Of a stretch of DNA of 64,000 bases, positions 3,848 to 24,695 are shown in pieces. The DNA comes from an uncultured Erysipelotrichaceae bacterium. Lineage in GTDB: Bacteria; Bacillota_I; Bacilli_A; RF39; UBA660. The number at the start of each line of letters is the position of its first letter. Position 1 is the stretch's first letter. The DNA lies in assembly GCA_902775285.1 (NCBI GenBank), contig CACYLI010000002.1, forward strand, positions 8,413 through 72,412. Reading direction: 5' to 3'. Below the pieces are notes generated by a model. The model saw only the letters and a list, made by a program, of their open reading frames with translations, was not told the DNA's origin and ran no database searches. The position numbers and the translations under genes were made by a program.

Positions 3848-4561
3848 CTACTTCAAAGTATTAGTTTTACTAATATCTATATTTCTAATAGAAGAAGATG
3901 AATATTCTATAACTTGAACATTTACATCTAATTCATCATTTATTGTTTCTTCAAACATTTCACATATTTGACTAATAACATTCTTTCTTTCTAAGTATTT
4001 TTCTACTAATGAATCATTACTTAAATCATTTACCATTTCATCATATCTAAATCCAATTACTAAAGTTCCATTTTTTACATAAAATGAACTTGAATCAGAT
4101 GGCCCGTAATTTAAAGATGAATCATCACTTGTTTTTTCTTTTATTACTTTATTGAATGTACTTTTAATAAAATTTTCACTTTCACTATCAAAAGAATAAT
4201 TATTACTTAACATTTTATTATCTAAAAATGATTTTTCTTCTTCTGTTAGTCTATCTAAATATAAATTATTTCTAACATAGAAATAGTTTAGCTTATTACT
4301 ACATAAATACTGATACATATCTTTTTCATTATCCATTATAAATGGAATATCATAATTAGAACTATTTTGTAATAATTCTTCTATTTTTTTAATACTTGTA
4401 TTCTTAATTAAATAATCTACTAATAATGTAGTGTATAAAGAATATTCTTTAAAGAAATATTCTTTATCACTATCATTCATACTTTCATAATCATATGTTT
4501 CTAATTTAGGAAATCTAGTATTAAAGATATCTTCATTTAAAACTATTAAACTATCTTTCAT
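3848..4561 (-). CDS. Hypothetical protein, paralog of 2326..3027; candidate immunity protein
   Basis: 237-aa ORF colinear with 2326..3027 over its full length; start overlaps upstream stop by 1 nt. Confidence 0.75.
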   Translation of the reverse strand: MKDSLIVLNEDIFNTRFPKLETYDYESMNDSDKEYFFKEYSLYTTLLVDYLIKNTSIKKIEELLQNSSNYDIPFIMDNEKDMYQYLCSNKLNYFYVRNNLYLDRLTEEEKSFLDNKMLSNNYSFDSESENFIKSTFNKVIKEKTSDDSSLNYGPSDSSSFYVKNGTLVIGFRYDEMVNDLSNDSLVEKYLERKNVISQICEMFEETINDELDVNVQVIEYSSSSIRNIDISKTNTLK

Positions 4562-5121
4562 TATCTATTCATTCCCTTCATTTGTTCATCTATATCTATA
4601 ATATCATATTTACTTTCGTCATTTCCATATGAATTATTACTTAAGTAAGAACCAGGATTTAACTCTTCCTGTTTCAAGAAATTATATTCTTCTTCAGTTA
4701 AATCCTTGATTCTTATGTCACATAAACCATACTTATCATCATAATATAATATTAATCTACCTAACTCATAATACGATTTAATTAATGACTTAGGTTTAAA
4801 ACAAATATGCATATCTTTTTGATTATAAATAATACTAAAACTACCTGCATTTTCTACATTAATTGGGCCTGATTCAGAAAAATAAGAAGCAATATATTTT
4901 TTTTCTAGATCATTTATATCGGGTAATTCATAATCTGACTCTTCTATTCTATTTGATAATGCACAAACACCAGAGCAAATTTCATTACCAAGAACATATA
5001 AATCTAATTCAAATATATTATTAGTATCACCAAATCTAATTGAAAATACATTTGAATAATTATTACCTAGATTAAAGTATAATACAGATTCACCACCAAT
5101 TTTAATTTTTTCTTTATTCAT
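4561..5121 (-). CDS. Hypothetical acidic protein immediately downstream of the giant gene; candidate immunity to its C-terminal domain
   Basis: Start (MNKEK, 5121) overlaps the giant ORF stop, indicating translational coupling. Confidence 0.7.
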   Translation of the reverse strand: MNKEKIKIGGESVLYFNLGNNYSNVFSIRFGDTNNIFELDLYVLGNEICSGVCALSNRIEESDYELPDINDLEKKYIASYFSESGPINVENAGSFSIIYNQKDMHICFKPKSLIKSYYELGRLILYYDDKYGLCDIRIKDLTEEEYNFLKQEELNPGSYLSNNSYGNDESKYDIIDIDEQMKGMNR

Positions 5122-8100
5122 ATGACCACCATCCAATTAAATCTTTCAATTCTTCTTCAGTACAAGTATTTATTTTACCATTTTTCAACATATTTTGGAA
5201 ATCTATATTTTTCATTAATTCATCAAAAGCTTTTTCAGCTAATTGACTATTCGGTAAATAACTTAAAATATAGTTTTTTATGTCTTCATCTGTTGAAAAT
5301 ACATTAAAAACTTTATCTTTAATGATTATTGTTATTATAGATTCATATACTTTAGAAATTAATGTTAGATTATTCTCATCTACTTTAGCATAAACACTAT
5401 CTTTCATTCTTTCTTGCATTTGCATTAAGTTTATTTTTAATTCTGGATTTTCATACATTTCATCTAAATATTTATTTAGGCCTAAATTCTTTCCTCCATC
5501 GAAGTTAAACAATTCCTCTATCATATTTGAAATAGTTATATGAAAGAAAGTACTAGTATAACCAGCATCAGTTGAATCTAAAATCATTGTATTTATTAAT
5601 TCCTGCTTTACAATCATTTTATATTCTTTAGAATTGCTTGGTTTTATCGCTTCATCATTTGAAATCCTTTTACTAATTTCTTTTATATACCATTCAATAG
5701 ATGAAATTATAGGTGCAAGAGCATTTGAGTTAACTCTTTCAGAAGTTGGATACATATGAAATATTTTTTTATCAATATGAAATGTTTTTTTACTAGTTGG
5801 TGAGATATCATTTCCTAATATTTCAATAATAAATCTATAATTTCCATTAGCATTAGCATTAGCATCTACAAGTATTTTAAGACCTCTACTATACTTACTA
5901 CTAGAATATTTGTACTTTTCACTATTATTTTGTTGATTAATACATTTATCTATTGCATTCATATACAAATGCATTGTTGCAAGTCTAGCAATATTTCTTA
6001 TTTTATTTAAATCGCTTGAATCAATTATTCCTTTATTTTTCTTTATTTTTTGTAATATATCAATAATTTCTGTTTCATTTTGATAATTTTGTGTTAAATT
6101 TCCATTTTCATCAATAATTCCAGCTGAAATAAGTAAGCTTTCTAATCTATATTTTCCAGTAAGAGTATCTTTATTAGCACAATAATTTGATTGGCCTATG
6201 CTTTCTGCTATACTACTATCTATTTTTGCAATAATACTTTTTGCTTTTTCATTATTCTCTAAGAAGTTTTTCAAATCTGTATAAAGCTGATTATTCGTTC
6301 CATATCCACCATTTACTTCTATTAAATAATCACCATTTGGGGCCAATTTAAAAGTACCTTTAAAATCTCTTTTTTGTTCTTTTGCAATATTTAATAATTC
6401 ATCCAAATCTGCTTTATTAATTGAAACCGAATAATTCATTAAAACACTTTCAACTATTTCATTAGCGTGTTTTAAACAACCTATAATTCTATCTCCTTCT
6501 TTATGTCCTGACATCTCAATTATTATTCCATTTGTTTCAACTATCATATTTTCTGGAAAACCATTAACAATTGTATCAGATGATTCTATTATTCTTGTTT
6601 TTAAATTACTACTTGCTTTTGAAAAATAATCTACTATAGATGATTTTTGTAATCCATCCAATTTACGAGGACTTGAATTAACCGCACCAACATCTTCACT
6701 ATCATCAATCTCTATTATTGCTGATTGATTATGTTCACTAGATGAATTATTAGCTTCAATAATGTCACTTTCTATATAATAATGTAGTACTTCATCATTT
6801 TTCTTAACACCAAGTAGTTTTTCCATTAATGATTGTTTTGAAGATATTTCTGTTTGTTCTTTAATATAAGATTTTTGTTTTTCAGTTAAATAAACTTCTA
6901 TAGACTTTATAAATGTATAATCATTATCACTAATTGATTCTAATTCTTCTTTTGTTAGACTTCTTATAATTAATTCTTTTAATTTAATTTCATTATAAGA
7001 ATTATAATATAGATTAATCTTTTGTTCTAATGACATACTGTTTATAAATTCATTTACTATTTCTGGATTATCTACTATAAGATTATAGTATTCTAAAAGT
7101 ATTTCTGGATCAGAAGTATATTTTAGTATACTATTAGGTTCCATATTATTAAGTAATTCTATTAATAGTTCTTTATTATCTGTCAATTCAAGAGTATCTA
7201 AATTAATAATATTACTTTCAAGACCTCTTATAACTTGTAAATAATCTTTTTTAGCTATTAATTCTTTAATCTTATTTCTTGTTACTTGAATATTTTCTTC
7301 ACTATTCATTTCTAGATTTAATGAGAATATTGCACTATTATCTGAATATAAATCAGAGTATCTAATTAAAGCTTTATGACCCCAAGTAATAACAATTAAT
7401 CCATCTTCATTAGCACCAATAATAGTAGTAATATGAGCTCCACCTTCATTCCAATTAAAAGTTGAACTATAATCATTAGTTTCATCTAAGTTGTATAATA
7501 CTAATTCATGAGCATCTTTTGATACTACTTTATTTCCTTTTTTATCAGTATCCATTTCAACTCTTTCAGTTAAACTTAATATTTCACCATTAGCAAGTCT
7601 TCTCTTAATATCATTTTTTAATAAATCAATGTCTACTGAACCATCTTCATTATAACTAAGAGTTAATTTAGAACCTTCTGTTTCTATTCCATAGTGTCTT
7701 AAGTAATCAAATGCTATTTGATAATATCCATCTATATTACAAGCATATACTTGCTCTTTAGAATTTGCTGTTCTAAATTTACCATCTTCATTTATTATAT
7801 TTAGTTTTCTCTTACCATCTGTATCAATAGTAAATATTCTTCCATTTGGATTTGTATCTGATGAGTTAAAGAATAAATACATATCAAATAGTAAAGCTCT
7901 AGTATTTAATACTCTTACTCCATTCTCATATTCATACATGTCAAACCCAAATCTACGTTTAAATCCTTCAGGATTGTTTCTAAATATCCATAATATTACA
8001 TTGCATAAATTTGCATAAGAACATGCTCCTTTTTGTGAATCTATAATGTTATTAATTGTTTCAACAATTAAACCTTCTGTCATATTATATTTACTTGAGA

Positions 8101-11100
8101 AATGATCAACAAATCTTCTAAATGAAGGAGTATTAATTTGAGAAGGACCAATTTGTCCATAATTATTTCTTCTAATAAATGAATATATTCTTTCAGATCT
8201 TTTTATTTTTTGATTTGTTCCTAAAGTAGATCTTTTATTTCCATGTCTATGTTTTTCAAAGAAAATTTCTTTTTCAATTAATCCAGTATTAATTCTTGAT
8301 TCTATTAAATCACTCATTTCTGAATCAAATTCATATCTTAAATCAGAAGTAATTCTTCCAACAAATGAAGTATCCTTAGTAATTAATTCTTCTTTAATTA
8401 AATCTATTACTTTTGCACCTTCACTTAAACATAAAGTAAATAACTCAGAATCAGTATATAATACTTTATTATTATATTTATATTCATATACTTTTCTTCC
8501 ATCTATTGTAAGTACACCTAAATAAGTTAATTCACTATCTCCTATTTTAATATTAAATCTATTAGCATGTAATAATCTAGGATTTTCTTTAATATAATCT
8601 AGGATTTTAGTATCATTAGTACTTAAATACAAATCTATTAAATTATTACCATCAATATATTTAATATAGTCATTATTAGTTTGATATAAATATAAGATAT
8701 TACTTGAAGTTAATGAATTAATATTATTAGACATAAATACTTTATTAAGTATTTGATTATTATACTCTCTAATTCCTGTTTTTATAATTAATGAAACAAA
8801 ATCTACATCTATATTTCTATATAATTCATTAAATTCATCAGTACTTAAACTATTTAGGAAATCTATTACATAATTAGATATGAAACCATTATTTAAATCT
8901 GTATTTACCTTATCAAGGAATCTTATCTTATATTCATTATTACTATAAGAATTAATTAATTTTTTTATGTTATCTATTGATTTAATATTATTAACAAAAT
9001 TTGGGAAAGCAGATATTGTATTAGCTAAAAAATCATCAATCTCCATATTACTTAGAATAGTATCACTATCTAAATTTTCTCTTGTTAAATCTATTAAATC
9101 ATATTTATGTTCATTAACAAATTCTTTATCTTTTATTAATTCATTAAATATTTCATCAGTTGTATAATCTAAAATGAAATATACTTTCTTATAATTACCA
9201 TCAGCATCCAATAGTGATCTAATTAGTTTAATATCTTTTATTTCACTAATTAAATCGATATATCCTTCATCAATAAATAATGAATAATTATCAATTTGTA
9301 ATACTCTAGATGCTACTTCATCAGCAGTTAAATCAAATTTAGAGTAACTTGGTGCTATTAATCCTAAATTGTTTTTAACAAATGTATTACTTTCAAATAA
9401 AGTTTTGAATACTTCTTTTGGTATTTTATTAATTAATTCATAATTAAAATGTATATTTGAAAGAATATCTGAATCTATAGATGTTATACATTTAGTAAAT
9501 AATTCTTTATCAAGACTATTTAATATTCTAACAATTGATTCTCCAGGTATTGTTGATAATCTTTCAATTGTATTGTCAAAATCAATACCACTATTTAGTT
9601 TATTTTGAATATCCAATTCAATTATTACATTTTGAATTATACTATTTAATCTTTCTTCAAACTCTAATTTATTAGAATCTGTATTATAACCTTGAATTAA
9701 TCTATTAAACTCTCTTGTTGTAAGTAATCTTTCTTTAACACTCTCATCTATTTCTCTTCCGTTAAGTATATTATCTATTATATTGTCTGATATATTAGTA
9801 GGTTTAGAATCAAGTTTTGAAATTAAATTGTTAATAGAATTAACTATTCTACTATAAATTTTAGAAATAGAATTTGTAATTGTTGATAACTTGTTATTAA
9901 TGCTATTTTTAAGATTAATTAAAGATTTAGTTAATCTTATTTTTTGAGAATCTAAAATTTGATTACTATCTACTTGTTTCTCTATATCAGTAACTATATT
10001 ACTAACTCTTGTTGCTATACTTTCAGTTGCACCAATTTCTACTAAATTTTGTGCTTCAATTATTTTTTGAGTATTCATATCAATATATTCTGATACATTT
10101 ACTCCAATATTTTCTAGAGTTAACAACTCACTAGGAGTTAAAGATTCTAATATTCGTGTTACTTCAGTTCTATCACTAGATTCTAATAACTTATTTATTT
10201 TAGTAGCAATTGTATTACTATAAATAACATATTGGTTATTTTCATCTACTCTAATTCCAAATGAAGTAACAAGTACAGATTTACCATTTGCATCTGTTTC
10301 ATAAATGTTAATATTTAATGCATTATTCTGTGTCTTATTGTTTAATCCAATAGTAATTGTTTTATTATTTCTTCCACCTGTTAATAAATCTTCTTGTGAA
10401 GCAACATCTCTCATATATTGTTGAAGAGTACCTATATTTCTATTTCTAACATTATCTATTCCAAATAATGTAGGTAATGCTTCTAATAAACCTGGAAGAC
10501 CTTTAATATCTTCTAGTTTTATATTTCCTAAAAGTGAAAGACTATCAAATAATTCTAAATCATTTTCTGTTCTGCTTTCAATTAATTCTTCTGTTAATTC
10601 TTTAATGAAATAATCACTTACAGATAATAATGGACTTATTCTTGAATCTACATTTAAAATAGCATCAGTATTACCTTCATTAATAATTTTAAATATAGCT
10701 TTTTGTTTTGCAAGTTTAGCTTTATCTATATTATATTTAATGTTTCCATCTGGATTAGGTAATACCCATCCATAGAAGTATGAACCAAATTCATCAATTA
10801 TATCTCTTACTTCTTCACTAATATTATCATTTACACCATCCATAAATTCTAATCTATAATTAAATGGTGAAATTCTAGATTCTTTTGTTACATTAGCAAA
10901 CTCTGAATCATGCCAATATTTAGATTTGATTTGTTCACTAGATAAATACATAAATCCTGTAGTTGGACGTCCTACTTTAATATTATAATAATCTGGATGT
11001 CCCAATGGAATTGTCATATCTGGAACAATCAAACTTCCATCTTCAAGTATTACATACATAGCAGCATGACTATTATAAACATAACTATTATCATCATACA

Positions 11101-14100: not shown

Positions 14101-17100
14101 TAATTCTAACAATTAAATCCTCAATATTTTCTTTAGATAATAAATTATTTGAAATAACTTCATCTAACATTTTTTCATTTAAATGATCAATAATATTTTC
14201 AGTATTTTTAAATCCACTAGAAAGAATATTTCTAACTACTTCTATATCACTTATTTTATTTACAAAATCAGCATATGTCTGCATATCATTTACAGAATAA
14301 ATTATTCTTTGTAGTGATTCTTTTGGCATACTACTAATTATTCTATTAACATTCAAATCTCTACTTATAACTTCATCAATAAATGATGTTTTAGAGAATA
14401 AATCTATAAATACTGGATTTTCTATTATTTCATAAATAGCTTCATCACTAAGAGTAGATGTATCTATTGACTCACTTTGATAGTATTCTAATACTCTATT
14501 CTTAACGCTTTCATTACTTAATTTATGAATATTTGTTAATAGTGTTATTCCACATCTATCTAATACTTCATCAGTTAATTCAATATTTTCAAGCATTCTA
14601 TTAACTACTAGTGAAATATCTGGTTTTAATACAGGTACTTCATCTTGAGAAGACTGTTCATCATGTATAACTTCATCGTTAAACTTAATATCACTTGCTG
14701 CACGATCATCCATAGTAGAACGATCACTTCTACCATCTATTACAGGAGCATTTGTATTTCCTGGTGCATTATTGTTTTCTGGTGTATTATCAACTACACC
14801 AAGCATTTGTCTTAAATTATTTGGAATTAATCCCATTAAAACAGTGTCACCACTTATAGCTCTTAATACTTGTGATGTTTGTGTATCACTTCCATTATTT
14901 ATTCCAATTATTTTACCATTTGTTAGTTTTTCTATTTCAGTATTATTTTTATCTATAGTTTCTTGAAGATTAGAAACTTGTTTTTCTAATTTTTCTATTT
15001 CAGTATCATTGCTTTGTATTTCTTTTTCAATATTACTTAATATAGTAAAATCATTTTCTTTCTTAAGTCTTTCTCTTAATTCAACATTCTTTTGTTCAAT
15101 ACTTTCTAACTGTGTTCTATAATCTTCTAGTATCGTATTTATTCTTGAATTATCTTCACTTAATAGTGTTGCAATTGTATCTCTTGAATCTAAAGTTGTT
15201 TCAAGTCTCTTACCAAGAACTTCAATTTCTCTATCTAATTTTTCTTTTAATACTTCTAAACTTTCAATATCTTTATTTAATTTATCAAACTCAGTATTAT
15301 TTTTTTCTTCTGGATTAATATCTTGTATTATTTGATTATTTTCATCTAGTTTTTCATTAACCTTTTGTAAAGTTAGTAAACGTTCTGCTAATAGTTTTTC
15401 ATTATATAAAAGTGTATCATTTATTTCTTGTTCAGTTGTAGATTTTAAAAGAATATCATCATTAATACTAGTTATGTTTTCAAATAACTCTAATTGATGT
15501 TTTAATTTTGATATAGTATCTGTATTTTCCCTTGTTGCTAGAGAACTATCGTTTTCAATACTACTTTCAAGATTTAAAAGCGTATCTCTAATTGAAAGAT
15601 AATTATCATAAACATAATCATTAGATTTATTTAATTCGCTTAATAATTCTGATATTTCAGCATGAAGATTTATTAATTTAGATTCAGCTGCAATGTTTAA
15701 AATACCTTCTTTATTATTATTAAGCAATTCTGATACTTGATCATTAGTTAGTCCTAAATCTCTTTGTAATTTTATATACTGTTCTCTTTTTTCTTTTAAA
15801 GAATCAAGTGTTTCTTGTCTTTCAGTTAAAATATTAGCAATTCTATCATCAGTAAGTGCTGCAATACTATCATGTCCATAATTTAAAGATTCATTTCTTG
15901 CATTAATAATTGCTTGCTCTAAATTTAAAGCTGCATATGCTTCTTCTAAAGCATAATCACTATATTTTATTTTTTCACTATTGATTTCTCCATTGGCAAC
16001 TAATTGATCATATTTGGCTTTTAGTTCTGGATTAACTTCTGCTACAGCAATTTTTTCTTTTAAATTATTTCTAATTTGATTCATGAAGCGTAAATCACTT
16101 CTTAATTCTTGAGATGTAAATAATTTTATAATATTAGATCCACGATATTTATTATTTAAATATTTTAATGCAGACGGACTATCCAAAACTGCATATGATG
16201 CTAAGTCTATTCCAACATTTACAATATTTAAACCTTGACTAGCAACTCCACCTGCTACAGACATTACTCCACTAGTTATTGCACCATAAAGTCCAGCTTT
16301 TAATACTGCATTTGGATCAACTACAACACTTTCTCCGGTAAATACACTAGATAAAAATGCATCATAAACTTCTTGAACACTTTCTTCAAAACCTTCACTA
16401 AGCATTTTTGTAAATACTCCAGCAAGTCCTTTGGCACCTTCAAAGCTTTCATTTAGCATACTTAATCCTGGTAATTTACCTAATACAGCTTCCATAGTTG
16501 TTTCAGACAAACCAGATAATAAACCATATATTGTTGCGGTTGCTTCATCCATTCCTTCAATCATAGCTTGTTGTTTTGTTCCACCAGCTGCACTTAATCC
16601 CATTGTTGCAAAAGATGCAAGAAATTGGAATGATTTTAGTGCTGTCTCAGGAAGTCCTAAACCACCTGTAGCTACAGATATTCCTAATGTTGCCACAATT
16701 GAAGGTAACATATTACCTATACTGCTACCAATTTCATATTCATTTATTAAATAAGATGCAAAATCATCATCAAGAGTTACATCATTTAGGAATTTTTCTA
16801 TTTTATAATCTTTAGCAGTTTTCCTACCATCAGCAGCAAATATATTAATAAAATTATCTGCCCAACCATTAACTCCATCATATAATGAGTAACCAGCCAT
16901 ATAAGCAAATTTTCCAGCATCACTCCAAAAACCAGAGGTATTTTCAAAAGCTTCCTTCATTTTAGCATATCGTTCTTGCCCTAATTCATAACCTATAATT
17001 TTGGCACCAGTATCATTAAATATACTAAATATTTCTGTTGCTTCATCGATTCCATATTTATTCATAAGATATGAATAACATTGAAGTGCTTGCTCTGTTG

Positions 17101-20100
17101 TATAGTTATAATTATTTTCTTTACTTCCAGCTACTAATGCATTTAGATTATCAGTATATTTCTTTATATTTCCAGATACATCTAATCCAGTTGCATCGAT
17201 TCCATTAGAAATACAATATAATGCTATTTGGTCTTTATTCTTTACTAATTTGCCATCTTTATCATAAAAATACATTTGAAATGTAGAAGTTTCTGGATCA
17301 GGAATTTTTACAAAATGATCAACGCCTATATCTCCTGAAAATAAAGATTTATCTTGTGCATTCAAAATACATTTTATTTGATCAGCTGCAGTTTGTTCAA
17401 TTTTTCGGTTTAAAATTGCATTTTCAAGACCATATTCAATTACAAGACCATACTTATTCTCAAATATTTCTCTTTGAGAATCAGTTAATCCATCCGCTCC
17501 CATTCTTTCTGGTTCAATATATTTATCTTTTAATATTAATTTACTTAATGCTTCTCCTGCAGGATCATGATATTGTGCATTAAATGCATTTCCTATAACA
17601 GATAAAATTTTAAACCAATTAGAATCTGAAGTTGCTTTATTTATCGCAGATAAATTTTCAGATTGTTGTTCTTTTGTTTTTTCTAAAATATAATTATCAA
17701 CATCAAATGAAAGTTGATTGTATTCAGCATTATTAGCAAGTAAATAATTATGAATATCATCAGATGAAATAAATCCATCAAGATTTCCTGAAGACATTTC
17801 ATTTATTCTAATCATATCCAATCTTGAAACATTTCTATTGTATTCAATATCTTTTAATTGTTCTTCCAAAGTTGCTACTTTATCGTCTATTTCTACTGCT
17901 TCAGGATGATTTTCAAAAAATTCAACTGTTTGTTTTCTTGTTGCATATACATTTAAAGTTGTTTCATCTCGTAAAGCTTGAATTTGTTTTGCCTCTTCTA
18001 ATTCCTTGCTAACACTTAAATACTCATTATTTAGTTCAATAGATCTCATATATGAGAATATAAGTTGTTCACTAGAACTTAAAAAGCATGCATTATCTAC
18101 TATTGTTTTAAGGTCTTTTTCTATACTAGCTAATTCACTTTTTTGTTCACTACTTAATTCTTGTTCACTAGCTTCAATTCCTTTTAATGTTTGGTATTTT
18201 TCAATCTTTGATTGTGCTTCTTGCGCTTCTTGTGCTTCTTTATATAAAGCAGAATTTGGATCTAATTCATCAAGATGTAAAATAGCATTTTGAACTTGTA
18301 AAGCATGTGAATTTTTATAATAGTTATCAATATATTCTTGATTTTCTTCAGAAATTACTGGTGTATATATAGTTATATCATCATTATTTGAAGATAAAAC
18401 TTGTGTTTCAAAATTAGTGCCACTAATAATTCTAAGTACAGTTTGCATTTCACGAGAAGAAGCCATATACATATTAGCATTTGAAATATTATAATATGCT
18501 AATTGATCAACAACAGAAAACTTATTTGCATTAGAATAAATTGAATCAATTTTTGATTCTAATTTTTCTAACTCTTTTGTTTCAGAGGTTGATAATGTTG
18601 TTTTATCTTTTAATTCTAAATATCTTTTGTATTGACCTTTTGCACTTATTATTTGTGTTGCTTGACTATATAATTCTTGTTCTTCTTTTGACAAAGTTCC
18701 ATTTGCATATTTTTCTTGCCATTCGCTATAATTATTAATAATTTCTTGAGTTTTGATTTTAGGTAATACTTTTTGAGCATATTCAGAAAAATATAATTTA
18801 CTTTCTTCTTCTGTTAATCCATCTTGTTTTATTTTATTATACTCTTCTAATTTCTTTACATCTTCTTCTGTAGCTTGACCTAATGCAATTCGAGACATAA
18901 TATCACTAATTTCTAAATTATTTTCAGACATAGTATATAGTTTATTTGTTAATAAAACTATTTGTATATCTTTATTACTTACTGCATAACCATATTTTGC
19001 TAAATTATTACCAAATTCAAAATATAATCTCGAATTTTCCATATTTGAAAATGCTATTTGTTCTACTTGGCTAAATGGATTAATATTAGATTCTATTATA
19101 TCCATATGACTATTAATTCTATTATATTCTTTTAATTCTTCAGGAGTTAATTCTCTTTGATTTTTAAAATCTTGAAGTTCTAAAAATCTATTATATTCTT
19201 TTCTAGAATCTATTATAACTTTAGCTCTTAAGAATTCTTTTGTTTCTGCATCTGTTAATTCATTATTATTATACTTTTCTTGCCATTCTTCATAATTATA
19301 AAGAATACTTTGTGTTTTAATAGCTGGTAATATTTTTGTATATTGTTCACTATATACATTATTTTGTTCTTCTGTTAATCTTGGTTTTTCAATTTTATAT
19401 AGTTCTGTTAATCTTCTTTCATAATTTGTTCTATCTCTATCTGATAAATGTGAATTTGCTAGTTTATCACTTATTTCTTTTATTTCTTCTTGAGCATTAT
19501 AATATGATATTGCTTGATTACATATACTATCTGTTAACAATACAACATCTAAATCTTTATTTTCTACTGCATAACCATATCTATTCAAGTTATTTCCAAA
19601 TTCCATAAACATTCTTGCGTTTTCCATATTTGAAAATGCAAGTTGTTCTACTTGACTAAATGGATATGCTTTTGTTGTTGCTGTATCAGTATCTATTTTA
19701 GATTCTAATCTAGATAATTCATTTTTTTCTTCAGTAGTTAATTTTTCTTTATCTTTTAGTTCTAAATATCTTCTTGCATCAACAATTTCAGTTGCTTGTA
19801 AATAGATTTCTTCTTCTGCTTTTGTTAATTTACCATTATTATATTTCTCTTGCCATTCTTCATAATTATAAACAGCAGTTTGAACTTTAACAGCAGGTAA
19901 GATTTCATTTGCATATCTTCCCATATATAAATTTGATTGTTCTTTTGTTAAAACAACTGGTTTTGCATCTTTAAGTCCTTCTAATTCAGTTTCATACTTT
20001 TGTCTTTCACTTGCAGTAAGACTAGTATTATTTTGAAGTTCTCTTTCTAAAAATACTTTTCTATAATAAGCAGTTGATTGAGAATTCATATCATCAACTA

Positions 20101-23100
20101 ATTTAATGATATCTAAATCTTTATTTTCAACTGCATATCCACTACTTAAATAATTTGTTCTTATTTCATCATATACTCTTGCAGTATCACTGTAGCCAAA
20201 AATAGCCAATTCAATATCACTAAATGGATTAGCATTACTTTTTATTGTACTCAATTGAGTTTTTAATGCATTATATTCTTCTTTTTCTTCTGCAGTTAAT
20301 TTTGTTCTTCTTCCATATAATTCATCATATCTTTCTAGTTGTGCCTTTGCATCTAATACTTTCTTTGCCTCTGCTACAAGTTTTGAATCATATTCACCTT
20401 TTAATTCATCAAAATTATTAATTAAATTCCATAATTTTATAGAATCACCATAGTTTTCTTCTAACCATTGTTTATCTTGTTCAGAAACTGCTGCAGTTGT
20501 ATGTAATTCATCTTTTTTTGCTTGATAATGTGCACTATTATCATTTGAACCCATCTCAATTTGACAAAGTTCTTGATTATTTTCAAACATCTGTTTTGCA
20601 ATATTGAATGCTCTTACATCATCTTGTGACTTAAAATATTCACCAATATTACTATAAAAATCCAAATTAAGTCTAGCACTTTCCATATGTTGAAATGCTA
20701 TTTGATCTGCAACAGAAAAATTATAAATCAATTCTCTTGCTTTATTAATTTCTTCTTCTAAATATGGAGGAATTGTTTCAAGATCGGCATATTTTTCTAA
20801 TGTACTTCTTGCTTTTAATATTTCTTGTGCTTGGTGAAAATATTCTAAATCTTTTCCTGATAATTCTCCTTTTCTATCTTTTATAGCCCACTCGCTAATA
20901 TTATTAACCATACTTTGTACTTTTATTTTTGGTAATACTTCATTAGCATATTTTGAAAAATATAATGCACTTTCTTCTTCAGTTAAACCAAATACTGTTC
21001 CATTTGTTGGATCATTATTTCTATAAATTGTTAGTACTCCATCTACTTCTTTTGTTAGTACTCCATAGTCTTTACCAATTTGTTCTAATCTTTTTTTATC
21101 TTCTTCTGTAGCTAAATTATCATTTATTTTTTTAACGAGAATTGCAGCTTCATTATTAGCTTGAGCCATATTATCAAGTTTTTGTGTTAATAATATTATT
21201 TGTAATTCATTATCTTCAACAGTAAATCCATGTTCTCTTAAGTTTTCTGCATACTCCATAAATACTCTTGTTGCATTTTGATAATAATATAATGCACTAG
21301 CAACACCAGAATATTGACCAGTTATTTTTTCAAGTTCTTTCTTTTCTTTTTCTTGTTTTTCAGTCAAATGTTCTAAGCCATTAAGTTCTGCTAATCTTGC
21401 TTGAGAGTTTTTAAATTCAGTTGCTTTATCAACCACTGATTTAGTTTTTTCATCTAAATCTGAATAGTTTGCAAGTAATTTATCATAATCATCCAAAATA
21501 GCTAACACTTCAATAGAGCTAGCATTTTCATTCATTACTTCATTATAATATTTTTCATATAAAGCTCTTTCTTCATTAGTGCTTCCAAGAACTCTTATTG
21601 CATCGAAATGATCATCATATTTTTTCATTTCACTTTCTATTTCTAGTTTTGCAGAAAGATATTCTTTTTTTGTTATTTTTCTTTCAGCAAGTAATCTATC
21701 TAATTCTTTTATTTCTTCTTCTAGTGATAATAGTTTTTGAGAGTTTTCATATTCTTTAGCTAGATTTTCAATAACGGCACTTTGCGCATGATAATCTTTC
21801 AATCTAATATTATTTTCTTCAAGGTTTTTATAATATGATGATTGGCTTTCTAAAAATTTCTTTCTATATTCTTTGTATTTTTTACTATCTTTATTATATG
21901 CTTGTTTATTCTTTTCTTTATAACTTGCTAATCCTTTTTTATATTTACTACTTTTTCTATCACTCTTTGAAGGATATTCATTTCCATGTTCTTCAGCCCA
22001 CTTTGCAGCATATTCCTGTTCTAGCATAGCGTCTATAATATTTTTATAATTAGAATCAAATGTTTTTCTATTTGTTTTATCTAATTCTTTATAAAAATCA
22101 TCTTTTCTTTTTTGAGCACTTGTATTAAATGTATCCATCCAATTAGCTATTACAGCTTCACTTTGTCCAAGCATAGCTCCATATCCTGCTGCATATTCAC
22201 TAGCTGTTAAATCAAATGCATAGTTCATTAAAGTTTTTTCTGAATCTGAAAAAATTTCTTTTCCATCTTTATCTTTATTTGAATCATCCATTTTTTCTTT
22301 TAGATTAACTAATTGTTTATGTAAATTAGCTAGAAAACTATTATATCCACTTCCGCTTCCTTTTACACCAATTTTACTTATACTACTACACATACTGCTA
22401 AATGATGATGCATATTTTGTTCCTGAGATTGAAAAATTATATGTAGCACCATGTTGTGAAGTTTTATTTTCACCTGTTTGAAATTTTTCAAACACTTTAT
22501 TTAAATCAGAAGCTTTATTTTGAAGATAATTCCATCCAGTTTTTCCTTTATTTTTAGCATTATCTTGGCCAGTTATACTTGGTCCTCCAAGAATAGCAAT
22601 AGCGCTTCCTAAAGCAGCATAATCTATACTTATTACCCCTCCTGCATAACCTCCTCCTGCATTTTCATCTTCTAAGTCATTTTTTTCTTCATCTTCAGAA
22701 TTCTCTTCAATAACTTTTAATACATCAATCAATTCTGGATGAGCAACTACTAATTCTTCTAAACTATTGTAAATATTACCTTCTTTATCTTTATATGTTC
22801 TATTTCCATCTTTTTCTATTATTTCAATATCTTCCAAATTAAGAACATTTTCTGATAGTTTAAAGTCTATTTTTATACCATATTCTTCTAAATTTTCATT
22901 AATTATTCTTGTAAATTCTTCTTCGATTTTACTTCTATCAAGTACGACTAAATCTCCATTATCTTGGTTACTATTATCACCAGATAAAAACTGAGCAATT
23001 AGTTTGTTAAGTTCTTCATCAGTTAAATCTCCCTCAACTTCAATTTCTCCACTATCAATTAATTCTTTTATATAATCTCTAATAGAATCATAAACATTTT

Positions 23101-23638
23101 GAGTAACTTCCTGTTTTTGTTCTATAGTTAAACTATCTAAATCAAATTTTTCTATTTCTTTATTTATATTTTCGTTTAAAAAATCATTAACTATTCTATA
23201 ATTATCATCATTACTTGTATTATATGTAGCATCATAAGTACTACTATTATCAGGAGAAGACTGATATATAGGTGCTGATGCACTAAAAGAAAAAGGATCA
23301 TTTAAATTTGATGAAGAAGTAGTTGTAGATAAATCTGATGATGAATTAACTGAAGAATTGTTTGTATTAGAATTATTTACACTTTCTTTATTTGCTGCAT
23401 TTTCTTTATTTACTACTACATTTCCTTCAAATGATTTTATTTGATTTTCTTCTATTTCTGCTTTTGTTTTACTAGCAAACATTGTTCCTGCAATAGCAGC
23501 CGTTTCAGCTCCAAAAACACCTTTTGCTATTTTTTCTTCTTTAGTTATATCTTTTTTTTCTTCATGTAAAAGAGCACCACAAAACGGGCATTTATTTAAT
23601 TTTTTATTTATTTGTTTTCCACATTTTATACATTTCAT
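5114..23638 (-). CDS. Giant (~6,170 aa) multidomain putative T7SS effector: zinc ribbon, ~190-aa repeats, hydrophobic region, coiled coil, two papain-like domains, one transglutaminase-like domain, unknown C-terminal domain
   Basis: 18.5-kb uninterrupted ORF; CxxC..CxxC at N-terminus; GACSYA...H.TTI.G...[ST]WG twice; GCICATWA...SHAAMY...PDM once; located in the essC/WXG100/DUF4176 locus; start moved to MKCIKC from AAGGA RBS spacing. Confidence 0.85.
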   Translation of the reverse strand: MKCIKCGKQINKKLNKCPFCGALLHEEKKDITKEEKIAKGVFGAETAAIAGTMFASKTKAEIEENQIKSFEGNVVVNKENAANKESVNNSNTNNSSVNSSSDLSTTTSSSNLNDPFSFSASAPIYQSSPDNSSTYDATYNTSNDDNYRIVNDFLNENINKEIEKFDLDSLTIEQKQEVTQNVYDSIRDYIKELIDSGEIEVEGDLTDEELNKLIAQFLSGDNSNQDNGDLVVLDRSKIEEEFTRIINENLEEYGIKIDFKLSENVLNLEDIEIIEKDGNRTYKDKEGNIYNSLEELVVAHPELIDVLKVIEENSEDEEKNDLEDENAGGGYAGGVISIDYAALGSAIAILGGPSITGQDNAKNKGKTGWNYLQNKASDLNKVFEKFQTGENKTSQHGATYNFSISGTKYASSFSSMCSSISKIGVKGSGSGYNSFLANLHKQLVNLKEKMDDSNKDKDGKEIFSDSEKTLMNYAFDLTASEYAAGYGAMLGQSEAVIANWMDTFNTSAQKRKDDFYKELDKTNRKTFDSNYKNIIDAMLEQEYAAKWAEEHGNEYPSKSDRKSSKYKKGLASYKEKNKQAYNKDSKKYKEYRKKFLESQSSYYKNLEENNIRLKDYHAQSAVIENLAKEYENSQKLLSLEEEIKELDRLLAERKITKKEYLSAKLEIESEMKKYDDHFDAIRVLGSTNEERALYEKYYNEVMNENASSIEVLAILDDYDKLLANYSDLDEKTKSVVDKATEFKNSQARLAELNGLEHLTEKQEKEKKELEKITGQYSGVASALYYYQNATRVFMEYAENLREHGFTVEDNELQIILLTQKLDNMAQANNEAAILVKKINDNLATEEDKKRLEQIGKDYGVLTKEVDGVLTIYRNNDPTNGTVFGLTEEESALYFSKYANEVLPKIKVQSMVNNISEWAIKDRKGELSGKDLEYFHQAQEILKARSTLEKYADLETIPPYLEEEINKARELIYNFSVADQIAFQHMESARLNLDFYSNIGEYFKSQDDVRAFNIAKQMFENNQELCQIEMGSNDNSAHYQAKKDELHTTAAVSEQDKQWLEENYGDSIKLWNLINNFDELKGEYDSKLVAEAKKVLDAKAQLERYDELYGRRTKLTAEEKEEYNALKTQLSTIKSNANPFSDIELAIFGYSDTARVYDEIRTNYLSSGYAVENKDLDIIKLVDDMNSQSTAYYRKVFLERELQNNTSLTASERQKYETELEGLKDAKPVVLTKEQSNLYMGRYANEILPAVKVQTAVYNYEEWQEKYNNGKLTKAEEEIYLQATEIVDARRYLELKDKEKLTTEEKNELSRLESKIDTDTATTKAYPFSQVEQLAFSNMENARMFMEFGNNLNRYGYAVENKDLDVVLLTDSICNQAISYYNAQEEIKEISDKLANSHLSDRDRTNYERRLTELYKIEKPRLTEEQNNVYSEQYTKILPAIKTQSILYNYEEWQEKYNNNELTDAETKEFLRAKVIIDSRKEYNRFLELQDFKNQRELTPEELKEYNRINSHMDIIESNINPFSQVEQIAFSNMENSRLYFEFGNNLAKYGYAVSNKDIQIVLLTNKLYTMSENNLEISDIMSRIALGQATEEDVKKLEEYNKIKQDGLTEEESKLYFSEYAQKVLPKIKTQEIINNYSEWQEKYANGTLSKEEQELYSQATQIISAKGQYKRYLELKDKTTLSTSETKELEKLESKIDSIYSNANKFSVVDQLAYYNISNANMYMASSREMQTVLRIISGTNFETQVLSSNNDDITIYTPVISEENQEYIDNYYKNSHALQVQNAILHLDELDPNSALYKEAQEAQEAQSKIEKYQTLKGIEASEQELSSEQKSELASIEKDLKTIVDNACFLSSSEQLIFSYMRSIELNNEYLSVSKELEEAKQIQALRDETTLNVYATRKQTVEFFENHPEAVEIDDKVATLEEQLKDIEYNRNVSRLDMIRINEMSSGNLDGFISSDDIHNYLLANNAEYNQLSFDVDNYILEKTKEQQSENLSAINKATSDSNWFKILSVIGNAFNAQYHDPAGEALSKLILKDKYIEPERMGADGLTDSQREIFENKYGLVIEYGLENAILNRKIEQTAADQIKCILNAQDKSLFSGDIGVDHFVKIPDPETSTFQMYFYDKDGKLVKNKDQIALYCISNGIDATGLDVSGNIKKYTDNLNALVAGSKENNYNYTTEQALQCYSYLMNKYGIDEATEIFSIFNDTGAKIIGYELGQERYAKMKEAFENTSGFWSDAGKFAYMAGYSLYDGVNGWADNFINIFAADGRKTAKDYKIEKFLNDVTLDDDFASYLINEYEIGSSIGNMLPSIVATLGISVATGGLGLPETALKSFQFLASFATMGLSAAGGTKQQAMIEGMDEATATIYGLLSGLSETTMEAVLGKLPGLSMLNESFEGAKGLAGVFTKMLSEGFEESVQEVYDAFLSSVFTGESVVVDPNAVLKAGLYGAITSGVMSVAGGVASQGLNIVNVGIDLASYAVLDSPSALKYLNNKYRGSNIIKLFTSQELRSDLRFMNQIRNNLKEKIAVAEVNPELKAKYDQLVANGEINSEKIKYSDYALEEAYAALNLEQAIINARNESLNYGHDSIAALTDDRIANILTERQETLDSLKEKREQYIKLQRDLGLTNDQVSELLNNNKEGILNIAAESKLINLHAEISELLSELNKSNDYVYDNYLSIRDTLLNLESSIENDSSLATRENTDTISKLKHQLELFENITSINDDILLKSTTEQEINDTLLYNEKLLAERLLTLQKVNEKLDENNQIIQDINPEEKNNTEFDKLNKDIESLEVLKEKLDREIEVLGKRLETTLDSRDTIATLLSEDNSRINTILEDYRTQLESIEQKNVELRERLKKENDFTILSNIEKEIQSNDTEIEKLEKQVSNLQETIDKNNTEIEKLTNGKIIGINNGSDTQTSQVLRAISGDTVLMGLIPNNLRQMLGVVDNTPENNNAPGNTNAPVIDGRSDRSTMDDRAASDIKFNDEVIHDEQSSQDEVPVLKPDISLVVNRMLENIELTDEVLDRCGITLLTNIHKLSNESVKNRVLEYYQSESIDTSTLSDEAIYEIIENPVFIDLFSKTSFIDEVISRDLNVNRIISSMPKESLQRIIYSVNDMQTYADFVNKISDIEVVRNILSSGFKNTENIIDHLNEKMLDEVISNNLLSKENIEDLIVRIIDKKSNIDVNKLFNDLTVEQVKEYELFFRTGLTEYGRKNLIPLLNANNILKIKEFYGNVIYSRLTYQQLVELESIGNSEFIDYLTNLQKAIYIINSKYDSYIEHVSNPRNLIGVYYTVNRADGSKCKIGLSNIINNNGKPIYVYNINGSMYYSTTNIASITANSRDFLYNEVADEFLSESRLDSILASDRFLGKIEVKDGKFTINMDEKSEVLSIVDTYVNEDTNFYEHLRDSNTRKQFGTNQRVREVNRTRNFVTEDGVDSGIDIGSYTRLVEHFKNKYNLSEQETINTLLNVIDNEAGACSYADLTNVIFSTFKNNVSAFKKTFGFDMYEFENGKKTLNYRMLLMDMYIRMNSTDLSVYDGAHHPRIFSIDPVTNERIINARVDENGKIKVDRFGNIEYCTDKEQVYASRGGILTSAAIKYLNDYGIEIENNANLNYFDKDGSLDIDRLKQDLRRRILNGEHLSLTERIKTINTKDKNGKTIRVVDQSQKNLIFHNLDGERNTEILNWKEGAGHVTTIVGLTEDGVIVVSWGMKHEIKFSDLTQYNCRFTTTNLNTPLLRTIAENSVRYQELANMDIVTLATEIRTDDSIDLDYILKNYLSHETISGLIDEMGANEVLSRVRSARSVNTILEIIRNQISKEEFLQTLSNLTTEQKLLLIRNDDINNELKLDVVNSATTGNELAYAMIELYDAFSSEDFNNFRQNLTTSQMRLLVESDILGEREKIGYVRNAHMSPESVIKYFDDNVDQLLSYANEYYDSNTEYSQFLNKLSFDQLTDTVIYYKATSLHIDALINKSENSSLLTDIFFNDIGKNDLYEYLMSKSSNEIERIASKLTEDGKTKLNNIIQKGIDSLFDEEATLERTFELNEENIENKINDESIILNSSEVIDEGSMIREYSEVNKSTLKESVLAKIKPEMSEFEKARLIYLELGKKLDYSALYRYSLSKEGSAYYESEYNRKLTIDEVEKTGCICATWAQIYSEMLIAAGFKPESIVVQRLMYDDNSYVYNSHAAMYVILEDGSLIVPDMTIPLGHPDYYNIKVGRPTTGFMYLSSEQIKSKYWHDSEFANVTKESRISPFNYRLEFMDGVNDNISEEVRDIIDEFGSYFYGWVLPNPDGNIKYNIDKAKLAKQKAIFKIINEGNTDAILNVDSRISPLLSVSDYFIKELTEELIESRTENDLELFDSLSLLGNIKLEDIKGLPGLLEALPTLFGIDNVRNRNIGTLQQYMRDVASQEDLLTGGRNNKTITIGLNNKTQNNALNINIYETDANGKSVLVTSFGIRVDENNQYVIYSNTIATKINKLLESSDRTEVTRILESLTPSELLTLENIGVNVSEYIDMNTQKIIEAQNLVEIGATESIATRVSNIVTDIEKQVDSNQILDSQKIRLTKSLINLKNSINNKLSTITNSISKIYSRIVNSINNLISKLDSKPTNISDNIIDNILNGREIDESVKERLLTTREFNRLIQGYNTDSNKLEFEERLNSIIQNVIIELDIQNKLNSGIDFDNTIERLSTIPGESIVRILNSLDKELFTKCITSIDSDILSNIHFNYELINKIPKEVFKTLFESNTFVKNNLGLIAPSYSKFDLTADEVASRVLQIDNYSLFIDEGYIDLISEIKDIKLIRSLLDADGNYKKVYFILDYTTDEIFNELIKDKEFVNEHKYDLIDLTRENLDSDTILSNMEIDDFLANTISAFPNFVNNIKSIDNIKKLINSYSNNEYKIRFLDKVNTDLNNGFISNYVIDFLNSLSTDEFNELYRNIDVDFVSLIIKTGIREYNNQILNKVFMSNNINSLTSSNILYLYQTNNDYIKYIDGNNLIDLYLSTNDTKILDYIKENPRLLHANRFNIKIGDSELTYLGVLTIDGRKVYEYKYNNKVLYTDSELFTLCLSEGAKVIDLIKEELITKDTSFVGRITSDLRYEFDSEMSDLIESRINTGLIEKEIFFEKHRHGNKRSTLGTNQKIKRSERIYSFIRRNNYGQIGPSQINTPSFRRFVDHFSSKYNMTEGLIVETINNIIDSQKGACSYANLCNVILWIFRNNPEGFKRRFGFDMYEYENGVRVLNTRALLFDMYLFFNSSDTNPNGRIFTIDTDGKRKLNIINEDGKFRTANSKEQVYACNIDGYYQIAFDYLRHYGIETEGSKLTLSYNEDGSVDIDLLKNDIKRRLANGEILSLTERVEMDTDKKGNKVVSKDAHELVLYNLDETNDYSSTFNWNEGGAHITTIIGANEDGLIVITWGHKALIRYSDLYSDNSAIFSLNLEMNSEENIQVTRNKIKELIAKKDYLQVIRGLESNIINLDTLELTDNKELLIELLNNMEPNSILKYTSDPEILLEYYNLIVDNPEIVNEFINSMSLEQKINLYYNSYNEIKLKELIIRSLTKEELESISDNDYTFIKSIEVYLTEKQKSYIKEQTEISSKQSLMEKLLGVKKNDEVLHYYIESDIIEANNSSSEHNQSAIIEIDDSEDVGAVNSSPRKLDGLQKSSIVDYFSKASSNLKTRIIESSDTIVNGFPENMIVETNGIIIEMSGHKEGDRIIGCLKHANEIVESVLMNYSVSINKADLDELLNIAKEQKRDFKGTFKLAPNGDYLIEVNGGYGTNNQLYTDLKNFLENNEKAKSIIAKIDSSIAESIGQSNYCANKDTLTGKYRLESLLISAGIIDENGNLTQNYQNETEIIDILQKIKKNKGIIDSSDLNKIRNIARLATMHLYMNAIDKCINQQNNSEKYKYSSSKYSRGLKILVDANANANGNYRFIIEILGNDISPTSKKTFHIDKKIFHMYPTSERVNSNALAPIISSIEWYIKEISKRISNDEAIKPSNSKEYKMIVKQELINTMILDSTDAGYTSTFFHITISNMIEELFNFDGGKNLGLNKYLDEMYENPELKINLMQMQERMKDSVYAKVDENNLTLISKVYESIITIIIKDKVFNVFSTDEDIKNYILSYLPNSQLAEKAFDELMKNIDFQNMLKNGKINTCTEEELKDLIGWWSYE
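18000..21700 (-). repeat. Tandem ~185-200-aa helical repeats (about 6-7 degenerate copies) in the giant protein
   Basis: Recurrent GY/FxVE/SNKD/E (near 21229, 20140, 19576, 18991), LTEE..LY..YA..LP..K.Q, NY.EWQEKY.NG.L, FS.VEQ.AF..ME.AR. Confidence 0.85.
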
Positions 23639-23660
23639 ACTCTTATTCCTTATTATCATC

Positions 23661-24377: not shown

Positions 24378-24695
24378 CTATCTTTTTTCTATTTGATTTT
24401 CTTCTATTAAAGTATATTCTCTATTAGCTTCTTCTATTAATTTTGAATACATTTGATTATATAATGTAATATTATTTTTATCACTAAAATAGCCTAAAAA
24501 TCTAAATATAGCAAATATTGTACTTTTAGGAGTACGATTAATGCTTTCTTCTACTGATAAAAGAGTAAAGATATCTTCAGCTATTTTTTCATCTTTTTTA
24601 TTTCCAGAAGATGCATTTTTTTCTTTTAAAGAAGTAGCTCTTTTTCTCATATCACTAATTAAACTATTCAAATTTAAAATATCTTCATCTTTCAT
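24378..24695 (-). CDS. Hypothetical helical protein
   Basis: ORF with GGAGAG RBS before MKDED; no recognised family. Confidence 0.6.
   Translation of the reverse strand: MKDEDILNLNSLISDMRKRATSLKEKNASSGNKKDEKIAEDIFTLLSVEESINRTPKSTIFAIFRFLGYFSDKNNITLYNQMYSKLIEEANREYTLIEENQIEKR

Follow-up and report, generated by a model that had tools for sequence, protein, structure and literature searches.

The window examined here is a 64,000-nucleotide stretch of contig CACYLI010000002.1 from an uncultured Erysipelotrichaceae bacterium of the ruminant gut, and its dominant feature is a single giant open reading frame (ORF), referred to below as the giant, which occupies positions 5114-23659 of the minus strand, the strand that carries nearly all genes of the window. 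Counted from the first ATG at 23659 to the stop codon at 5114-5116, the giant comprises 6181 aa with zero internal stops and a predicted mass of ~700 kDa. It is the longest ORF of its 1.44-Mb assembly, an 83% complete draft metagenome-assembled genome (MAG) of 28 contigs in which the second longest ORF has 3040 aa. A preliminary description of the same sequence had proposed an intact 18.5-kb ORF starting at 23638 as putative T7SS (type VII secretion system) cargo. The ORF is indeed intact, and the proposed start equals Met8 of the giant, which opens a CxxC motif and gives a protein of 6174 aa. A start at the equivalent zinc-ribbon Met is also found in homologs of the giant, and a 6174-aa database protein (P0008), possibly the window's own record, is 100% identical to aa 8-6181.

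The giant gene and its operon

The giant belongs to a strand-coherent operon that runs from essC and the double WXG100 gene through helical partner genes to the giant, and from there through candidate immunity genes to DUF4176, all on the minus strand, with intergenic spacing ranging from overlap up to 111 nt. The first gene, essC (26296-30864, 1522 aa), scores 984.9 bits against TIGR03928 (cut-off 778.4) and contains the Pfam FHA and FtsK/SpoIIIE ATPase domains. It is followed by a fused double WXG100 protein of 205 aa (25607-26224), which matches TIGR03930 at aa 25-94, ESAT6_2 at aa 123-204 and PF06013 at aa 134-203 (30.8 bits). Directly upstream of the giant lies the gene for p201 (23661-24266), a helical-hairpin protein with equally placed homologs in the genus and a candidate Lap-like targeting partner, whose match to LXG is below threshold (E=0.008, 16.5 bits against a cut-off of 26.5). 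The operon ends with a DUF4176 protein (1236-1571; PF13780, 89.1 bits), and such proteins are described, in parts of a 2025 study, as chaperones specific to LXG toxins of the T7SSb (type VIIb secretion system) (PMC12478183). The flanks of the operon are housekeeping in character (rpoZ, SpoU methylase, NUDIX, VanZ, ffh and rpoB/C), and no phage families were found among the ORFs of the window.

With regard to the soundness of the assembly, the G+C content along the giant is even (0.21-0.30) and similar to that of the flanks, in a window of ~25% G+C. The internal repeats are old: self-BLAST places a set of ~190-aa helical units at 27-52% identity and two large modules (aa 3064-3742 versus aa 4727-5449) at ~40%, and the divergence of both repeat classes is a pattern unlike that of a collapsed or duplicated assembly. 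In addition, a single 24,858-b contig from a run of another study (X2) is colinear with window 4600-18515, corresponding to ~13.9 kb of the giant, and includes, besides the hydrophobic module, the full set of four C-terminal domains and the genes downstream; most of the indels listed between the two come in multiples of three or as +1/-1 pairs that compensate each other. Parts of window 17820-23612 are covered by shorter independent contigs of runs X3 and X7. Among the public runs examined, no independent contig spans the whole gene, the 5' third being represented only by these shorter contigs. At least part of the stretch is present in public runs of 11 studies, labeled as cattle, goat, sheep or plain gut metagenomes (two unlabeled, one coded).

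The notion of a chimeric assembly, or of a pseudogene in decay whose frame happens to be open, draws on the origin of the ORF in a draft MAG, on internal repeats that invite misassembly, on homologs in two genomes of the genus (G057 and G059) that are broken at contig ends, and on the lack of a single independent contig over the entire gene. However, an open frame of 18.5 kb in 25%-GC DNA is impossible by chance, the repeats are far from near-identical and the catalytic residues are conserved; this explanation, to which we attach hardly any likelihood, fails on the independent contig. Read-mapping 'joints' with sides of 20-24 letters are taken as cross-matches from other organisms or repeats, and the sparseness of long independent contigs at ~18500-23659 is not evidence against the assembly. 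The giant is confirmed as a real gene rather than an assembly artifact, and the chimera against which the preliminary description had cautioned is contradicted by the colinear contig and the diverged repeats.

Architecture of the giant protein and its candidate immunity genes

Sequence matches in Pfam, NCBIfam, PHROG and PDB leave the giant unexplained. The zinc ribbon, Ser/Asn linker, helical repeats and hydrophobic region listed in the preliminary description are all seen, from motif, composition and self-BLAST. A CxxC...CxxC zinc-ribbon-like motif at aa 9-29 (23573-23635), which matches Pfam Zn_Ribbon_1 below the cut-off (E=0.087) and is retained in 6 of the 11 N-termini viewed, and a linker rich in Ser, Asn and Asp, evident from sequence and composition, precede a helical N-domain at aa 334-560 (21980-22660; alignment A5). 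This domain opens with the pattern '(I/V)-D-(I/V)-x-(Y/F)..L..A', contains a second conserved helix and is LXG-like in position and pattern without a Pfam LXG match; homologs outside the genus begin straight at an N-domain-type pattern. Of 151 class genomes sampled, only one has a Pfam LXG match. From its sequence pattern, we infer that the N-domain is a divergent LXG-like domain and a candidate T7SS targeting domain. A predicted complex of the N-domain with p201 obtained a weak median score of 0.56 (best control 0.00), with a partner predicted local distance difference test (pLDDT) of at least 80 and runs that agree in at least 61% of contacts. In the calibration, scores of 0.60 or less were given to 7 of 80 solved complexes and to both of the two passing mismatched pairs (of 110), and a prediction at such a level is by this calibration mostly wrong unless the pairing is already likely a priori.

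The middle of the protein consists of about six helical repeats (aa 700-1890; 17990-21562), which are the ~190-aa units noted above, a conserved Gly/Ala-rich hydrophobic module at aa 2111-2520 (16100-17329; alignments A1 and A2) with a Gly/Ala-rich hydrophobic region at aa 2300-2500, and a charged, coiled-coil-like helical region at aa 2521-2900 (14960-16099). The last of these is delineated by composition and by BLAST, which reaches aa 2968 in P0002, P0003 and P0004, and is common to the closer homologs. Inspection of the sequence revealed neither an N-terminal hydrophobic signal nor a C-terminal LPXTG in the giant, in agreement with the previously noted absence of a Sec signal and a sortase anchor, and a Sec- or sortase-anchored surface protein was rejected on this ground. 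An RHS or RTX toxin was likewise rejected, as repeats of such kinds were not found in the giant.

The C-terminal half had been described as carrying four enzyme-like domains, of which two now appear papain-like and one transglutaminase-like, whereas the fourth has neither a homolog nor a fold assignment. The papain-like cysteine peptidase domains 1 (aa 3293-3747; 12419-13783; alignment A3) and 2 (aa 5027-5454; 7298-8581) are ~40% identical. In an alignment of these two copies with six from genus homologs, the pattern G-x-C-x-Y-A...H..T..G...DG.....WG is invariant, and the Cys and His, Cys3488 and His3702 in domain 1, are invariant in 8 of 8 copies. The AlphaFold (AF2) model of domain 1 (pLDDT 74.8) points to the papain-like fold of clan CA, which has the Cys on the N-terminus of a helix and the His on a beta-strand. 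In a VIA structural search against representatives, the rows shown were nearly all clan-CA peptidases, including xylellain, IdeS, staphopain, PeiR, ZUFSP, UfSP, streptopain, calpain and C39 domains. At 8.2 (root-mean-square deviation (rmsd) 3.9, 178 aligned), the highest Z among them is middling, but the consistency of the matches and the invariant Cys and His lend it weight. Pfam searches with each of the 8 copies gave nothing below E=0.01, and the papain-like, N-domain, p201 and module profiles found only chance or coiled-coil matches among PDB sequences.

Between the two peptidases lies a transglutaminase-like domain (aa 4040-4560; 9980-11542; alignment A7), in which Cys4160, Trp4163, His4198 and Asp4214 are invariant in 8 of 8 rows, two of these being mutually identical. 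Its AF2 model (pLDDT 65.6) points to a transglutaminase core fold with a Cys-His-Asp triad. The best structural match is LapG (Z 7.1, rmsd 5.1, 145 aligned), below which are found TglA, other transglutaminases, PNGase, arylamine N-acetyltransferases (NAT) and factor XIII; Foldseek also returned LapG (probability 0.91-0.96, E ~0.1). The C-terminal region (aa 5460-6181; 5117-7282) matched no homolog or family: there was no BLAST match among the fetched proteins, Pfam gave only DUF7944 at E=0.063, and the best score in an Atlas search with the C-terminal 722 aa was 0.79, with kinase and effector leads too weak to be used.

Downstream of the giant, the gene order p191 (4561-5136; overlapping the giant stop, no family matched), p237 (3848-4561), alpha/beta hydrolase abh256 (3070-3840, 256 aa; Pfam) and p236 (2326-3036; a paralog of p237) mirrors the order of the cargo, namely the unassigned region, papain-like domain 2, the transglutaminase-like domain and papain-like domain 1. 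The window contains two papain-like domains and two paralogs of the p237 family. A local hidden Markov model (HMM) of the p237/p236 family, run over 25 stretches, located family members immediately downstream of large genes with a papain-like domain, two of them in the window and others in G019, G059, G057 and G379, so that they co-occur in 5 of 5 papain-bearing loci with an available 3' flank; the sole match in a stretch without a papain match is weak (L029 of G358, E 7e-9). On this sequence pattern, p237 and p236 are candidate immunity proteins for the papain-like domains.

On either side of the giant lies one of two paralogous alpha/beta hydrolases of ~250 aa, and a third copy, the only other one found, comes after a large gene with a transglutaminase-like domain at its end (L015). 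One may speculate, with L015 as the one other case, that abh256 is an immunity protein or enzymatic antidote to the transglutaminase-like domain, and, from position, that p191 could play the same part for the C-terminal region. On inspection, p191, p237, abh256 and p236 have no hydrophobic N-terminus, and the lack of this feature in the small downstream proteins suggests that the toxins act in the cytoplasm and must therefore cross a target membrane.

The remaining genes of the operon are small. The second hydrolase, abh250 (24751-25503, 250 aa; Pfam), is the paralog of that at 3070-3840, and p111 (24378-24713; no family matched) lies between it and p201. Near the operon end, p79 (2077-2316) and p167 (1573-2076) are small helical proteins. 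The p79-p167-DUF4176 cassette closes the operon with no toxin gene behind it, and in G019 (L014, 1246-3667) a p167-like gene, DUF4176 and a second copy of double WXG100 are found downstream of the large gene; the cassette is either an orphan targeting/chaperone cassette or one serving the giant. Elsewhere in the window (55082-55510), a 142-aa ORF with a Fic/DOC match below the cut-off (E=0.0022) lies beside a RecD2-like helicase.

Relatives of the giant in the genus, the class and phages

The two halves of the giant were compared with 50 genomes of the genus in a strict first pass, the counts from which are a floor. The homologs are large ORFs of 2400-3700 aa that have in common with the giant the zinc ribbon, aa 267-549, the hydrophobic-plus-helical stretch aa 2130-2900 and a varying number of C-terminal modules. 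At all 8 of the 8 genus loci whose contig holds the 5' part of a module-bearing large ORF, essC is adjacent, and in 6 of the 8 the order is essC, double WXG100, a helical p201-like gene of 141-207 aa and the large gene. Three of these helical proteins are linked to p201 by BLAST (E 1e-5 to 1e-7), and the remaining ones were aligned with it by position and pattern, including a central 'Y/F-L..V..NG..F/Y-D.G' motif (alignment A6). Within this alignment, p201 and two homologs (L013 and L015) have Cys-containing motifs near both ends around the central helical hairpin, which may constitute a metal site. The double WXG100 protein, a tandem fusion of two WXG100-like halves, has copies of 52-68% identity in 7 genus loci. 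Given the EssC score, WXG100, DUF4176 and the synteny in the genus, the link between the giant and a T7SS is well supported by context.

The giant-type gene is not a core part of the secretion system. Of the 24 genus genomes sampled, 18 have an essC score over the cut-off, many of them with 2-4 copies of the gene (range 1-4), and the module is matched in at least 7 of 49 other genus genomes. The window's own genome (G000) has a second essC locus (contig C12, 23530-32051), with genes for 137, 953 and 197 aa upstream of essC, none of which is similar to the giant or its neighbors. Three further genus contigs contain large-ORF fragments that run into contig ends. The fragments of G057 (L018, L019 and L020; 1324, 3548 and 1823 aa) and of G059 (L016 and L017; 2558 and 2434 aa) may have come from further giants of ~5000-6700 aa, broken at repeated papain-like modules.

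A search limited to longer proteins yielded four unnamed homologs, and a profile search of genome contigs with a 4-row alignment three loci in MAGs of uncultured Bacilli. In the class, 12 of 401 genomes, the window's genome included, match the module profile, and at the phylum level the module search added no genome to the class-level set. The 11 other class genomes split into four with a T7SS-type context and seven with a prophage-like one. In two genomes outside the genus (G344 and G449), essC adjoins the large gene. In two others outside the genus, essC lies elsewhere in the genome: G358 has DUF4176 directly upstream and the weak p237-like match downstream, and G379 a p237-like gene downstream of the large gene.

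The central module is far more widespread. In nine aligned genus sequences it is marked by the motifs ADGR..A.DY, YEI..SIGNM.PS, MG.SAAG, GMS...A..YG.LSG.SE, SEG.EE..QE.LDP and KAGLYGAITAG, and against 1.84 billion proteins its profile matches at least 3226 cluster representatives at E<=1e-3, with 2058 at E<=1e-10 and 660 at E<=1e-30. The family was surveyed through the 149 best matches, leaving out the window's own protein. These representatives are 391-7277 aa long (median 1187), eleven having at least 3000 aa and one at least 5000 aa, and the module usually lies at ~aa 250-650. A papain-like domain is present in 41 of the best 149, in 36 cases no more than 40 aa from the C-terminus, and a transglutaminase-like domain in 13. 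Among 46 scanned representatives, 43 have no Pfam family (of the others, one ends in EndoU, one ends in TNT and one has a dockerin) and 45 no NCBIfam match, and none of ten members looked up has a name in any source. As judged by sequence, the module defines a large family with polymorphic-toxin architecture and no Pfam or NCBIfam model. The only other protein above 5000 aa among the best 149 is P0123 (7277 aa), with the module at aa 1280-1681 and BLAST matches to the papain-like and transglutaminase-like domains. Another member, P0078 (769 aa), combines a type I dockerin near its N-terminus with a C-terminal region like XopAD/skwp effectors, an architecture that suggests that some family members may use other routes or anchors.

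In the prophage-like group of seven genomes, the module is located near the N-terminus of a protein of 2000-2200 aa, that of G442 being cut at 706 aa by the contig end. Upstream of the G295 gene are those for terminase, P22-like portal, major head protein and SU10-type adaptor, and the large protein itself carries LPD38 and LPD23. A P22-like portal gene is also found upstream of the module gene in G442; in four other genomes of the group the large protein matches PHROG families, and G114 was placed in it by similar gene order only. Ten IMG/VR viral contigs (~15-45 kb, including L045 9104-18481) carry the module as well, at ~aa 300-650 of ORFs of 2909-3584 aa in nine cases and of one cut at 1489 aa by the locus end in the tenth. 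The one viral contig scanned has MuF_C at aa 1132-1239 of the module protein, and the gene lies downstream of terminase. According to the portions of Iyer et al. (2017; PMC5512222) drawn on here, LPD38 is confined to phage-type polyvalent proteins, and the domains carried by the phage module proteins are assigned to polyvalent proteins that are delivered into the host at invasion.

The module HMM matches the prophage proteins with E-values of 1e-10 to 1e-15 and those of the viral contigs with 1e-34 to 4e-40, and the same motifs can be aligned in copies of T7SS-type, prophage and viral origin. The closest clusters in the Atlas (score 0.95-0.96) are viral, with LPD22 in 12-29% of members; a tblastn search of the module against 50,697 phage records gave no match. 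At the level of sequence, the module is shown to be homologous to that of phage proteins with MuF_C, LPD38 and LPD23, and the likeness to phage polyvalent proteins that the preliminary description had offered as conceptual is real homology of this central part. A tape-measure protein was rejected as an identity: the phage relatives stand beside terminase and portal genes (contigs with P22-like portal and SU10 adaptor), and no tape-measure family was matched.

This kinship brings in the alternative that the giant is a domesticated or remnant phage polyvalent protein independent of the T7SS, for example one released by lysis or packaged by a prophage elsewhere. Consistent with this, the relatives of its module are encoded beside terminase, portal and head genes, the Atlas neighbors are viral, and no LXG domain was detected in the giant or its genome. 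However, no phage gene was found in the 64-kb window, the module lies 2100 aa from the N-terminus in the giant versus ~100-600 aa in its phage counterparts, neither MuF nor LPD domains were detected in the giant, and essC, WXG100, p201-like and DUF4176 genes are kept around the close homologs and absent around the phage ones. A purely phage-derived protein therefore fails on context, and we consider it quite improbable. As to the history of the module itself, T7SS toxins of these gut Bacilli might have taken over a membrane-crossing module with which phages drive giant MuF and polyvalent proteins into Gram-positive cells, or phages might have taken it from the toxins, a transfer that we regard as possible and on the whole doubtful.

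Proposed export and target entry, and comparison with known systems

In our assessment, the giant is probably a polymorphic multi-toxin of the adjacent EssC/WXG100 T7SS, by which it is most likely exported. Sequence comparison brings out the trait of a polymorphic toxin: the N-terminal parts and the module are common, and the C-terminal domains differ from one homolog to another in both kind and number. The account that needs the fewest assumptions is that of a T7SS polymorphic toxin grown by duplication of stalk repeats and stacking of toxin modules, which its phage-related hydrophobic module would help to deliver.

Several observations weigh against this reading. Most directly, PF04740 (LXG) is absent from the giant at E<=0.1 and has no match in the whole genome at E<=1e-5 (10 candidates scored), and the putative targeting domain starts ~340 aa in, behind the zinc ribbon and linker, whereas the known arrangement is N-terminal. 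The size of ~700 kDa is far above that of known T7SSb substrates. The hydrophobicity peaks are modest, at most 1.6 on the Kyte-Doolittle scale, which makes membrane insertion a matter of conjecture. The fold matches of the cargo domains are middling (Z 7-8), and the Foldseek E-values all exceed 0.01, those of the papain-like model being weak even for the best matches PeiR, prostaphopain and Mac-1/IdeS (0.016-0.05); the comparison of AlphaFold models that had been recommended earlier supplied papain-like and transglutaminase-like folds. A further point is the distribution of distant relatives. None of five prophage-group genomes, each 95-99% complete, has essC, nor has any of the ten viral contigs, in which other T7SS-type genes are likewise absent. 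The expectation that homologs co-occur with essC holds for the 8 assessable genus loci but not for these, and homologs in phages and without T7SS genes, which the preliminary description had named as a finding that would count against it, do exist among distant relatives, the close ones remaining linked to the T7SS. As for the proposal of T7SS cargo as such, which is supported in part, EssC, WXG100 and DUF4176 in the operon and the essC adjacency in the genus agree with it, whereas an LXG domain was not detected.

A further point of the same kind concerns the apparatus. For EssB, EsaA and YukD (TIGR03926, TIGR03929 and PF08817), nothing over the cut-off was found in five genus genomes of 83-90% completeness (G000, which is the window's own, G019, G015, G051 and G053), a scan that divergent forms could escape; the result places in doubt the status of the EssC system as a working exporter. 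The organism is walled, since penicillin-binding proteins are encoded. By their gene content, the T7SS loci of the genus may represent an uncatalogued reduced variant. Variants c to j with differing accessory parts are described by Garrett et al. (2024; PMC11217815), and the window locus was not matched to any of them as they are described in the main text of that article.

Since something else may complete such an apparatus, the giant might instead be a permanent component of the secretion apparatus or a fiber on the cell surface, an EsaA/YueB-like substitute anchored by its N-terminus rather than a secreted toxin. The constant adjacency to essC in the assessable genus loci fits this alternative, as do the long helical repeats and hydrophobic segments, and several homologs have a zinc ribbon followed by a Gly/Ala-rich hydrophobic stretch, a possible membrane anchor. 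Nevertheless, most essC-bearing genomes of the genus have no giant-type gene, TIGR03929 (EsaA N-terminus) has no match, and the variation in length and C-terminal domains, the invariance of the catalytic residues and the co-occurrence of matching downstream genes are the behavior of a polymorphic toxin and not of a core part. A structural component fails on distribution and polymorphism, and we deem it unlikely.

If the giant is a multi-toxin of the T7SS, its N-domain (aa 334-560) would pair with p201, and perhaps p111 or the double WXG100 protein, to form the export signal, as LXG domains do with Lap proteins, and DUF4176 may chaperone an amphipathic stretch. The helical repeats, ~1200 aa in total, would form a stalk or spacer. 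For the Gly/Ala-rich module (aa 2111-2520), homology rather than function is established; it would carry the C-terminal cargo across the target membrane, and its relatives belong to head-associated MuF and polyvalent proteins of phages, which are thought to enter the host with the DNA. The cargo would comprise two active papain-like peptidases, one transglutaminase-like enzyme and one unassigned domain, with helical spacers between them, and p191, p237, abh256 and p236 would protect the producer, as suggested by co-occurrence for the p237 family and by position for the rest.

The module is a concrete candidate for an answer to the open question of how T7SSb toxins whose targets are cytoplasmic get into other cells; in parts of the 2025 DUF4176 study, the downstream role of the amphipathic middle domain is described as yet undetermined (PMC12478183). 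If a membrane-crossing module did pass between phages and toxins, which seems less likely than not, this unnamed module, found across thousands of metagenomic protein clusters, would act as a general device for protein translocation and would supply the missing entry step for such toxins, and one export event could deliver three or four toxins in a string. The locus also widens the range of what is associated with the T7SS, with a ~700-kDa protein bearing serial putative toxins and a secretion locus in which EssB, EsaA and YukD are not detectable. The annotation of many gut metagenomes would improve if names were given to the N-domain, to the module and to the papain-like toxin together with its p237-type immunity partner.

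Among known systems, MARTX and large clostridial toxins are giant polypeptides that combine repeats and a hydrophobic region for translocation with a cysteine peptidase and serial effector modules, and the giant resembles them in its size, repeats, hydrophobic region, cysteine peptidase and serial modules. In contrast to MARTX, its peptidase domains appear to be cargo with immunity proteins of their own rather than a processing device, and RTX repeats, a C80 peptidase and type I secretion genes have no Pfam or NCBIfam matches in the giant or its neighbors. Because immunity-like genes are present, the targets are probably bacteria. CdiA, with its long stalk, membrane-entry region, variable C-terminal toxin and downstream immunity gene, offers another point of comparison, from which the giant differs in its secretion route, its Gram-positive producer, the lack of FHA-1/FHA-2 repeats and the presence of several toxins per protein.

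Polymorphic toxins linked to MuF were reportedly described by Jamet et al. in 2017. The many enzymatic domains in one giant polypeptide and the shared central module are features in common with phage-type polyvalent proteins, as portrayed in sections of Iyer et al. (2017; PMC5512222). Unlike these, the giant resides outside any phage or conjugative element, amid T7SS and immunity-like genes, its module is far from the N-terminus, and the MuF, LPD and metallopeptidase signature domains have no Pfam match in it.

The closest kind is that of the T7SSb LXG toxins, such as TelA, TelB and TelC of Streptococcus intermedius and YxiD of Bacillus subtilis, compared with which the giant is about ten times longer. 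It differs further in that its helical domain is internal, behind the zinc ribbon and linker, and without a Pfam LXG match, and in that it carries three or four cargo domains instead of one, together with a module of ~400 aa akin to that of phages. In the portions of two studies that outline the layout of T7SSb LXG loci, essC and WXG100 accompany upstream helical partners, DUF4176, a variable C-terminal toxin and immunity genes (PMC12478183; PMC11217815), and the locus of the giant is alike in its essC, WXG100, upstream helical genes, DUF4176, variable C-terminal domains and immunity-like genes. The shared module could be the part of wider relevance, the giant being otherwise a variant of the known polymorphic T7SS toxins.

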